44,644 nucleotides of DNA from IMG/VR virus record IMGVR_UViG_2568526230_000009; one strand, given 5' to 3'. The notes below the pieces were generated by a model that made no database searches, had not been told where the DNA came from, and worked only from the letters and a program-made list of their open reading frames with translations. This DNA comes from a virus (Duplodnaviria; Heunggongvirae; Uroviricota; Caudoviricetes). Below, piece by piece: positions 39,090 through 41,306 of the stretch. Both the position numbers and the translations under genes were made by a program. The stretch's first letter is position 1. Every line of letters starts with the position of its first letter.

Positions 39090-41306
39090 ATGACCATTTT
39101 TAACGGCTTGTTAGAAGCGAAAAAAGGCGCGCTCAAAAACGGCGCGATCCCGGCGCTGGCCATCGCCATCGCCGCCCCTAACAAAAAAGTTGCCGAGAAC
39201 ATCATCATCGGCAAATTGTGGGAAGCCTACCCTGACCACGGCGACAACTATTTCAAACCTAAAATCTGGGAAGATGCCCCGGGCCAACCGCGCCCAGGCG
39301 TCGGTGAGTTTGATGAGACGTTTGCCACAGAACACAGTTTTGATGGCGAAAAATGGGTAGTTAACACTCCTGTTGATTCAGATTGCAGTTCAGCAGATAT
39401 CTCACAGGTTAGCGACCTGATGAAACTGCCGGCTCGTGAACGATTCGCCGCCGTTCTGCTGTTCAGCCACGACGCCAACGAAGTCGACAGTGAATTGCTT
39501 GTGCAGACGCGTGAATACCTGGAGATGCTCGATAACAGTGATACTGACAGTGAGGATGAGGTTGACGCGTTTAACCGCATCGTTCTTGATGCCATGGTGG
39601 CGTGTAAGCCCATCGAGTACATGCATATTGCTGGATTGAATAATCTGGTACATGCAATTTTGGCAAGTTGCGATACCCAGGAACAAAACCCGACCAGTTG
39701 GACTATCTCCAAATTTATAAAAAAATGGGTAGAGAATCCCGGTAAACGAGATGAAATGCTGCCGGAGGTAAAACCAGAAACAGCATCCGCACGTCCTTAC
39801 AAACAGACTCACGCCACTCTGGATCGTGAAATTGCCTGCGCCCTGTTACCTGTTGCCCCGGAAAAAATCACCCCCAGCATCCTGAAAGCGGCAGACGAAA
39901 TAATCAGTCAGGACAGGGAAGATTTTAAACGCTGGTCAATGGCCTTGCGCACAACGGATCAGATCCTTGCCTATGACCGCGCATCAGTATTCGGTGTTAT
40001 TCAGAGCGCCCCCGCAAAAGACACGTACCACTTCCCACAATCCCTGCGCAGTCACATCGACAACTGGCTGCAAGCTAACGGGCAGCGTGATGCAAATGCT
40101 GTTGAAGAGAAGCCAAAGGAAGCAGCACCCAAGGATGATGTAAAAGTCACCAACCACGGCGGCGGACGATTCTCAATTGATGGGATGATGTCAGAAACAC
40201 CCTCAAATCAGGGCGAAAAAAGCGAAGCTGCAAATGCTGGAGAACGTAGTTTGCAGCAGTTGCGTGAGCAGTTTGTCACGCCTCGCCATGTGTATGACGT
40301 ACCTGAAAATAACGCCGTATCACAGAGGGAACCTGCAGCTATTACCCTGGCAGAAGAGACTCCTCCACAAGAACAACTTAGCGAGCAGGTAAAGGATCTG
40401 GTGCAGAACGTTGACGCGCTGGTTGAGCGGATCCATGCCGAAGAGCACAAGCGGCAGAATGCAATCTCAGCTATCGAAACGGAGTTAAAGGACTCAGATG
40501 ACACGGATAACCTGGCATTGTGGAAGAACGTATTCAAAACCGATGAGCGCTTCACCAGTGCTTTCTCTCAGAATGGCGGCGGCACATCCATCAACGGCAC
40601 TTATATAGCGATGAAAGCGACTCGCGAATTTGGGCCATTTGGTATTGGCTGGGGGGTAGAGGTGCTGGAGGAGCGCTTTGATAAAGGCGCACCAATAGTT
40701 CGCAAAAAACAGGTTGGTGAAAAAATAGAATGGGATCTGATTCAAGACGGTGTTGGCGGGTACCTATGTGAAATGCACCACACCATGAAAGTGAGAGTCT
40801 GGTACATATTGAATGGGGTACGCGGTGAGTCCGAGGCTTACGGATGCACACCTTATATCTACGACACTAAATACGGACCAACAAGCGACGGCGAAGCACC
40901 GAAGAAATCCTGGACGGATGCTGTTAAGAAAGCGCTATCCCCTCTCGGATTCAGCGCCGATATTTTCATGGGCCTGTACGACAATCCGGAATACCGCCAG
41001 AGGAATAAAGCTGAGTTTGATATCAAGAATGCCAGCGAGAATGCGGAAGATGCTACCCGTCTGCGTAAGGAACTGGATGAGAAGCTTATCAACGTTGCCA
41101 ATACGCTGGCCGCCGCGGTAACCGCCAACGAAGTAAACAAGGTATTTGGCCTCATCGCCCGCGAAGTGGATGTACACAGGAAAGCAGCGGAAACCAAAGG
41201 CGATAAAGAATATTCATCGTATCTGGGATCACGTCTGCGCCGTATCACCGACATTAAAACTGAACGCCTCGCCGCCCTTACCGCTGCACAGGAGCAAACA
41301 GCATGA
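39090..41306 (+). CDS. Large protein with C-terminal Rad52-family single-strand annealing domain
   Basis: 738 aa; TREFGPFGIGWGVEV and KKSWTDAVKKALSPLGFSADIFMGLYDNPEY resemble Rad52 motifs as recalled; N-terminal ~500 aa acidic and unassigned. Confidence 0.5.
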   Translation: MTIFNGLLEAKKGALKNGAIPALAIAIAAPNKKVAENIIIGKLWEAYPDHGDNYFKPKIWEDAPGQPRPGVGEFDETFATEHSFDGEKWVVNTPVDSDCSSADISQVSDLMKLPARERFAAVLLFSHDANEVDSELLVQTREYLEMLDNSDTDSEDEVDAFNRIVLDAMVACKPIEYMHIAGLNNLVHAILASCDTQEQNPTSWTISKFIKKWVENPGKRDEMLPEVKPETASARPYKQTHATLDREIACALLPVAPEKITPSILKAADEIISQDREDFKRWSMALRTTDQILAYDRASVFGVIQSAPAKDTYHFPQSLRSHIDNWLQANGQRDANAVEEKPKEAAPKDDVKVTNHGGGRFSIDGMMSETPSNQGEKSEAANAGERSLQQLREQFVTPRHVYDVPENNAVSQREPAAITLAEETPPQEQLSEQVKDLVQNVDALVERIHAEEHKRQNAISAIETELKDSDDTDNLALWKNVFKTDERFTSAFSQNGGGTSINGTYIAMKATREFGPFGIGWGVEVLEERFDKGAPIVRKKQVGEKIEWDLIQDGVGGYLCEMHHTMKVRVWYILNGVRGESEAYGCTPYIYDTKYGPTSDGEAPKKSWTDAVKKALSPLGFSADIFMGLYDNPEYRQRNKAEFDIKNASENAEDATRLRKELDEKLINVANTLAAAVTANEVNKVFGLIAREVDVHRKAAETKGDKEYSSYLGSRLRRITDIKTERLAALTAAQEQTA

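Follow-up and report, generated by a model that had tools for sequence, protein, structure and literature searches.

We analysed a 44,644-nucleotide window of DNA, recorded as the Caudoviricetes virus IMGVR_UViG_2568526230_000009 in IMG/VR. The window is a segment of the Escherichia coli chromosome with a complete-looking prophage that has lambda-like head, P2-like contractile tail, lysis, replication, immunity and integration genes, and whose insertion site adjoins tRNA-Leu/Cys/Gly and pgsA. On the plus strand, positions 39090..41306 hold a gene that starts with ATG and encodes a protein of 738 amino acids (aa), WP_000151806.1 in RefSeq, where it is named 'hypothetical protein'. A first-pass annotation of the window had pointed to this open reading frame (ORF) as unusually large and had seen in it a Rad52-type annealing protein with an acidic N-terminal extension of about 500 aa; the ORF, its strand and its size are exactly as described there. 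The protein is a fusion of three parts: a folded N-terminal module that shares a region with the RecE exonuclease (N-module, aa 1-335), a variable linker (aa ~336-475) and a Rad52-type annealase domain that reaches the C-terminus.

In DNA of ~50% GC the length of this ORF is far above chance, and homologs in E. coli, Salmonella and a Stenotrophomonas phage establish it as a real, conserved gene. Of 5426 complete E. coli genomes, 463 carry it, and in 439 of these at least 80% of the gene is covered. Full-length homologs are present in many Salmonella genomes and in Stenotrophomonas phage vB_SmeS_BUCT708, an isolated, plaque-forming phage (53% identity). For the viral comparison, 80 viral loci (contigs) were inspected in detail: the gene is full-length in 74 of them, and the N-module and the Rad52 domain lie within one ORF in 78. 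At least six of the complete E. coli genomes (hits H1-H6) have the gene split by ISEc52, an insertion element of the IS3 family. These interruptions, together with the IS2-truncated state of the related K-12 pseudogene ydfE and with the truncated or frameshifted members found in databases, would fit a view of the fusion as a decaying remnant or an annotation artefact (frameshift-joined genes, for example) that is functionless as a single polypeptide. However, the single ORF is kept in ~21 clusters despite divergence of the N-module to ~25-30% identity, the architecture is maintained in the 74 full-length viral loci and in a plaque-forming phage, and the prophage in the window appears complete. 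A functionless remnant is thus extremely unlikely, and the gene is treated below as encoding a conserved fusion protein.

The annealase core of the C-terminal domain (aa 476-626; 40515..40967, plus strand) is composed of a helix, three long β-strands with an inserted hairpin, and a signature helix, PKKSWTDAVKKALSPLGF. It is followed by a tail of three helices (aa 633-737; 40986..41303, plus strand). The AlphaFold2 (AF2) model of aa 464-738, computed with 46 homologs, has a predicted local distance difference test score (pLDDT) of 91.4 and displays, in order, a helix, three long antiparallel strands with the inserted hairpin, a second helix and three long helices (model residues 170-212, 216-239 and 243-274). 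The β-β-β-α annealase core fold of the Rad52/Rad22 superfamily of single-strand annealing proteins (SSAPs) is therefore present in this domain. A search with aa 442-738 retrieved standalone proteins of 236-281 aa (40-45% identity, E ~1e-43) from Pseudomonas, Stutzerimonas, Yersinia and other genera. Many of these carry a precomputed PF04098 (Rad52_Rad22) assignment in Pfam, and some are named 'Rad52/Rad22 family DNA repair protein' by NCBI; PF04098 was matched individually by 16 of 28 aligned homologs, with a best E value of 1.5e-7. The size of the standalone relatives agrees with the earlier statement that Rad52-type phage annealing proteins are usually small.

The inner groove of RAD52 binds single-stranded DNA (ssDNA) through residues that include K152, R153 and also R55 and Y65. 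When the family profile was aligned by hhalign with RAD52(1-211), a sequence identical to PDB 1kn0_A, PKKSWTDAVKKALSPLGF was placed over RAD52 ARKEAVTDGLKRALRSFG. In this register RAD52 K152/R153 align with K613/K614, of which K614 is invariant and K613 at least 90% conserved in the family. Since the predicted structure and the transitive profile evidence agree, the Rad52-type assignment of the C-terminal domain is well supported: the AF2 model, the profile-sequence comparison and the transitive Pfam matches all bear out what the first-pass annotation had proposed for the C-terminal third. The three-helix tail is conserved in family alignments and is also found in standalone homologs; by analogy with SSAP C-terminal domains (PMC11611040), it is a candidate partner-binding region.

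The fusion gene belongs to a conserved cassette. Its stop codon overlaps by 4 bp the start of a gene for a 189-aa Sipho_Gp157 protein (41303..41872, plus strand; PF05565, E 9e-29), which is classed as 'Mu Gam-like end protection' by PHROG 253 and lies directly 3′ of the fusion gene in 78 of the 80 viral loci. Two small genes flank this pair: a 106-aa gene (38739..39059, plus strand; phrog_2479), found at most 600 bp upstream of the fusion in 73 loci, and a 60-aa gene (41872..42054, plus strand; phrog_2482), present in 72; neither has an assigned function. After the cI-like repressor, the early-left order is 106-aa gene, fusion, Gp157, 60-aa gene, DUF4224 excisionase and integrase, and the cassette order is kept in phage BUCT708, in a metagenomic contig (L006, 48% identity) and in Salmonella prophages. 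Probing with phmmer for the RecE nuclease domain and for RecT gave no homolog within 4 kb in any of the 80 loci, and no exonuclease or RecT is annotated anywhere in this prophage. In three Pseudomonas aeruginosa contexts, apparently prophage, a standalone 248-aa Rad52-type gene also directly precedes Gp157, with an SSB gene (ssDNA-binding protein) next in one of them. The annealase and Gp157 thus form the core that is conserved, to which the enterobacterial lineage has added the N-module.

Domain and structure prediction of the N-terminus, a check proposed in the first-pass annotation, gave a folded module of three sub-domains and no nuclease. The AF2 model of aa 1-335 has a pLDDT of 89.1 and a predicted template modelling score of 0.46, and this latter value leaves the relative orientation of the sub-domains uncertain. 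Sub-domain 1 (aa 1-92; 39090..39365, plus strand) is a small α/β unit; the similarity to the K-12 YdfE remnant (aa 18-87, 34% identity, E 4e-8) falls within it. Sub-domain 2 (aa 115-223; 39432..39758, plus strand) is helical in the AF2 model and contains the acidic loop DNSDTDSEDEVDAF (aa 148-161). Sub-domain 3 (aa 233-336; 39786..40097, plus strand) is also helical, its modelled domain spanning aa 241-330; it is common to RecE (exonuclease VIII, residues ~262-370) and to many RecE-like nucleases, and is the sole part of the N-module that resembles authentic RecE. It aligns with positions 262-370 of the NCBIfam exodeoxyribonuclease VIII model NF007259 at 46.1 bits, against a cut-off of 1269, and matches PHROGs 607 and 2082. 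BLASTP to Rac RecE gives a marginal alignment over 70 aa (aa 243-308 with RecE 263-332, 26% identity, E 0.007). Precomputed Pfam data for an identical protein (P0001) and for all full-length homologs assign PF27430 (YdfE_N) to the N-module, so that the earlier description of the N-terminus as unassigned no longer holds.

The linker (aa ~336-475; 40098..40514, plus strand) varies in length and sequence among homologs, and homology breaks within it. It is probably flexible, disorder being suggested by this variability; the first 12 residues of the C-terminal AF2 model, which correspond to the linker end, have low pLDDT. A short motif is conserved amid the variable sequence, N-H-G-G-G-R-F-S-I-D-G-M at aa 355-366 (40152..40187, plus strand). 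Its GGGRFSIDGM part (aa 357-366) follows the family pattern G-x-G-x-F-S-[IV]-[DE]-[GN]-L; a longer form, N-x-G-G-G-[RK]-F-S-I-D-G-[LM], is common to the Rad52-type and the nuclease-type N-module proteins. Of 22 Rad52-type clusters, 12 have the motif, as do 19 further clusters of the N-module family, at least 13 of them of the long nuclease type. It was found neither in complete standalone annealases nor in Rac RecE, which has D-I-A-C-G-R-S-S-A-P-M-P-Q there. The motif is a candidate docking peptide.

Members of the family are named 'hypothetical protein' or 'exonuclease' in databases, and phrog_2489, labelled 'exonuclease', matches the whole 738-aa protein. Such a label, the match of aa 233-336 to the exodeoxyribonuclease VIII model and a cassette devoid of a separate RecE-type nuclease or RecT, in which a built-in nuclease would be convenient, could together indicate a single-chain exonuclease-annealase, a 'RecE-RecT in one' with the nuclease in its N-terminal region. 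A nuclease at this place had also been suggested in the first-pass annotation. We rejected it: Pfam and NCBIfam identify no nuclease domain in the N-module, the model offers no nuclease fold or informative fold match, and the alignment contains no conserved polar or catalytic residues, alanine being its only invariant column. PF06630 (Exonuc_VIII), present in classical RecE-like relatives, is absent from the 738-aa protein. The N-terminus does match an exonuclease family, but the homology is to the non-catalytic N-terminal and central part of RecE and not to its nuclease domain. A combined exonuclease-annealase is thus very unlikely. Since the N-module is also borne by nuclease-type relatives, the 'exonuclease' labels of PHROG and NCBI are best read as annotation transfer from nuclease-bearing RecE-like proteins.

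Acidity suggests another role for the N-terminus. Acting as a DNA mimic, or as an anti-defence or anti-RecBCD module, it would neutralise a nuclease or restriction system of the host, and the C-terminus would meanwhile anneal DNA. The net negative charge (pI 4.82), the lack of a catalytic signature in the N-module and an early-left position typical of Gam/Abc-type inhibitors, as these are presented in a study of lambdoid phages (PMC12315714), are in line with such a role, and fusion to several kinds of end-processing domain would suit a part that inhibits or binds a nuclease of the host. The acidity reported in the first-pass annotation is real but moderate (80 D+E versus 50 K+R over the N-terminal ~470 aa), and it does not define a single block of ~500 aa, as the folded aa 1-335 are followed by the variable linker. 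Likewise, the acidic patch DNSDTDSEDEVDAF quoted there exists, but as an insertion in close relatives only; in more distant ones a shorter acidic loop, 'NDDE[ST]', takes its place. With acidity moderate and the most acidic patch not conserved, DNA mimicry is not supported, and PADLOC gave no defence-system match for the fusion protein or its three cassette neighbours, which led us to reject a defence-system component. A mimic or anti-defence module is unlikely, although it has more in its favour than a built-in nuclease. Taken as a whole, the observation made in the first-pass annotation is confirmed, and its interpretation is partly supported. The other proteins in which the N-module is found are considered next.

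With aa 1-441 as the query, HMMER searched 1.84 billion representatives exhaustively and returned 144 clusters only. The Rad52-domain profile is matched by 27 of these, ~21 at full length (670-814 aa), and among the Rad52-type clusters the identity of the N-module falls to ~25%. Another 60 long proteins form one C-terminal group by single-linkage BLAST. Pfam analysis of a sample of ten identified a PD-(D/E)XK DUF3799 domain in five and an Rv2179c/DnaQ-like 3′-5′ exonuclease in one (P0386); the other four gave no match. Both N-module regions, one within the first 100 residues and the other shared with RecE, are present in 14 of the 60, and the examples that were checked match aa ~3-330. The 826-aa 'exodeoxyribonuclease of CP-933P' of Escherichia phage Evi (contig L004, 3875-6355) consists of the N-module followed by an Rv2179c/DnaQ-like 3′-5′ exonuclease. 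The 4-kb flanks of this Evi gene contain no annotated annealase gene.

A further exchange lies within the Rad52-type group. The 622-aa E. albertii protein P0011 has ~97% identity to the 738-aa protein as far as aa ~447, after which identity drops to only ~40% in the Rad52 domain. Its sequence is that of a mosaic allele with a recombination breakpoint at aa ~447, the junction of linker and Rad52 domain, and its NCBI name, 'exonuclease family protein', appears to be a mis-annotation. The N-module is thus swapped whole between nucleases and an annealase of the Rad52 type, which points to a role independent of catalysis. This suggests that the N-module is a portable accessory domain of phage recombination enzymes. 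Neither the annealase fold nor the logic of the cassette is new; the novelty lies in the fusion of an annealase with a RecE-like module and in the three-way domain swap.

We favour, with a probability of roughly 0.6, a model in which the 738-aa protein is the SSAP of the early-left recombination module of a temperate phage and works with an adaptor N-module and with Gp157. It combines the observed domain identities, modular swapping and cassette synteny with proposals of different strength. By analogy with other Rad52-fold proteins, the fusion is highly probably a functional annealase. The C-terminal fold and its helical tail would assemble into rings or filaments, as in other Rad52-fold SSAPs; a basic groove with K613/K614 would hold the ssDNA, and complementary strands would be annealed. 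Annealing would in turn serve recombination-dependent replication, the formation of concatemers and exchange with related prophages. The translationally coupled Gp157 may be the partner of the annealase and, if the Mu-Gam-like label of PHROG is right, would bind DNA ends and shield them from RecBCD. MuGam-type proteins are described as binding DNA ends and blocking RecBCD (PMC12315714).

Since the module has no detectable RecE-type nuclease or RecT, resection would presumably be carried out by host nucleases, as in P22/HK620-type modules; 84 of 246 lambdoid Rec modules are listed without a nuclease (PMC12315714). The N-module and the linker peptide would link whichever end-processing domain is attached to them to the same partner or site in each case, for instance a protein of the host or the phage, or DNA ends. 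An adaptor or tether is the most plausible role for the N-module because it is swapped among a 5′-3′ exonuclease, a 3′-5′ exonuclease and an annealase and shows no catalytic signatures; this part of the model is nevertheless put forward tentatively.

Several points weigh against this model. Scanned directly against Pfam and NCBIfam, the whole 738-aa protein returned no Rad52 match, and PF04098 was not reached at E<=1 with the full-length protein or at E<=0.01 with the domain alone. Searches of PDB sequences by phmmer and by profile hmmsearch produced noise only, and Foldseek gave nothing significant for the C-terminal domain. It is because the direct Pfam, NCBIfam and PDB-sequence searches missed Rad52 that the assignment needed testing. 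The hhalign comparison with RAD52 spans 128 columns with an E value of 6.5e-5 and a probability of 64% only; in a stretch where the alignment is less reliable, RAD52 R55 and Y65 fall on F492 and S500. Furthermore, the Mu-Gam-like role of Gp157 is taken from a PHROG label, and the adaptor role of the N-module from its distribution. Finally, the nuclease screen was confined to the RecE nuclease domain and RecT, and the 106-aa protein, the 60-aa protein or an unrecognised protein could supply the nuclease.

The nearest annealase relatives of the fusion are the Rad52/Rad22-Sak SSAPs: the N-terminal domain of human RAD52, yeast Mgm101, Sak of phages 80alpha and ul36, and the standalone proteins of Pseudomonas and Stutzerimonas. 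The 738-aa protein differs from them in falling below the Pfam thresholds of PF04098 and DUF1071, and from the standalone Rad52-type SSAPs in the ~470 N-terminal residues that the RecE-like module and the linker add. RecE itself carries a PD-(D/E)XK 5′-3′ exonuclease domain (DUF3799-like) at its C-terminus, residues 564-866. The fusion resembles Rac RecE in its helical central region and in lying upstream of xis and int in the early-left operon, and many RecE-like phage exonucleases have in common with it the entire N-module and the linker motif. Unlike RecE, it has no PD-(D/E)XK domain, no PF06630 domain and no RecT partner, and an annealase occupies the C-terminus instead. The Pfam family YdfE_N is shared with YdfE of the Qin cryptic prophage of K-12, on which we found no functional literature; in contrast to the gene studied here, K-12 ydfE is a pseudogene of 306 codons, cut short by IS2.

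Among lambdoid phages, 'RecE-2', as described in the main text of the 2025 Genome Res survey of lambdoid Rec modules cited above (PMC12315714), fits the fusion family; that the two are the same family is probable, not confirmed, and a strand-annealing domain is not mentioned in that main text. The cassette is also comparable to the nuclease-less lambdoid modules presented there, namely P22 Erf/Abc, HK620 Sak4 and HK140 SAP with MuGam, in which an annealase and an end-protection or anti-RecBCD factor are encoded early-left with no phage exonuclease (PMC12315714). It differs from the P22 and HK620 modules in having a Rad52-type annealase rather than Erf or Sak4, a RecE-like N-module and two conserved small flanking genes.

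Upstream of the 106-aa gene, ~1 kb of DNA (37729-38738) contains no annotated gene. It is 81% identical to the corresponding DNA of BUCT708, compared with ~53% aa identity for the flanking proteins, and the segments that can be aligned across 68 distinct loci are 72-88% identical, versus 65-71% for adjacent coding DNA. A coding origin was rejected on the basis of indels that are not multiples of three and of RNA covariation. Just upstream of the 106-aa gene, a structured RNA element of ~130 nt (38537..38666, plus strand) was delimited with a covariance model built from five copies. It comprises three hairpins inside a closing helix, with GACCAA in loops. The model gives one plus-strand match per locus in 65 fusion-containing loci and none in the Pseudomonas and Evi loci. 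Pairing is retained in 90.8% of cells versus 77.2% in shuffles, and slid controls give 27-53%. Compensatory double changes affect 20 of 29 pairs. Compensatory cells number 215, compared with 71.8 for the shuffles, and 0 of 500 shuffles reached this value. No Rfam family matches. The element, which is associated with the cassette and is not part of the fusion protein, has the look of a structured RNA not described before, a leader or a non-coding RNA belonging to the rec-int operon, and is a candidate leader or antitermination-type RNA.

The rest of the gap (37729-38536, plus strand) is conserved and mosaic, with G-GAAAGA-C hexaloops on stems that covary by eye. A tRNA T-arm-like sequence, GGTTCGATTCCGGG, at ~38275-38290 is kept in some copies and deleted in others, and ARAGORN identified no tRNA at this position. 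Two short motifs are confined to one strand of the gap: GACCA occurs 10 times on the plus strand and GGAAAGAC five times, with no occurrence of either on the minus strand. In the wider region GGAAAGAC was located on the plus strand at 37934, 37983, 38420, 38484, 38657, 39080, 42255 and 42746, and its degenerate form GGRAAGAC has 15 matches versus 2.3 expected. Copies stand directly upstream of the ATGs at 39090 (the fusion gene) and 42264 (the DUF4224 excisionase). Because it is restricted to the plus strand in the gap and immediately precedes two ATGs, GGAAAGAC is a candidate for either a Shine-Dalgarno-like element or the site of an RNA-binding protein.

Elsewhere in the prophage, the immunity and replication region (35435-37728) has a cI-like helix-turn-helix repressor gene (37300-37728, plus strand) facing genes of the YdaS (36986-37252, minus strand) and YdaT (36451-36927, minus strand) families. 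A DnaB-type helicase gene follows, a layout that resembles Rac and Qin. A low-GC island at 28001-30000 (32-33%, against ~45-55% elsewhere) within the prophage maps close to an LprI-family lysozyme-inhibitor gene and includes a hypothetical gene, the coordinates being transferred from an annotated strain; this region was probably acquired as cargo (a moron).

The N-terminal ~560 residues of RecE are without known function, yet full-length RecE gives enhanced linear-linear cloning (PMC11611040). A bolder extension of the adaptor proposal, which we regard as doubtful, is that the N-module and its GxGxFS[IV][DE][GN]L peptide form a dedicated, portable targeting or tethering domain that delivers interchangeable end-processing activities to one partner or one DNA structure. 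It would explain why full-length RecE, and not its nuclease domain alone, gives efficient linear-linear recombination. Were it true, the pair formed here by a nuclease-free annealase and a Gam-like protein would be able to take over a host resection machine, and the N-terminal half of RecE would become directly testable by means of natural domain swaps.

Phage annealases such as Red-beta, RecT, Sak and Erf underlie recombineering and shape phage mosaicism. The family described here is common and mis-annotated, and its correction matters for prophage annotation and for the mining of recombineering systems. Its members are natural chimeras with which the RecE-like module can be dissected, and the annealase, Gp157 and the two small genes are a candidate compact recombination system without a RecE-type nuclease of its own.

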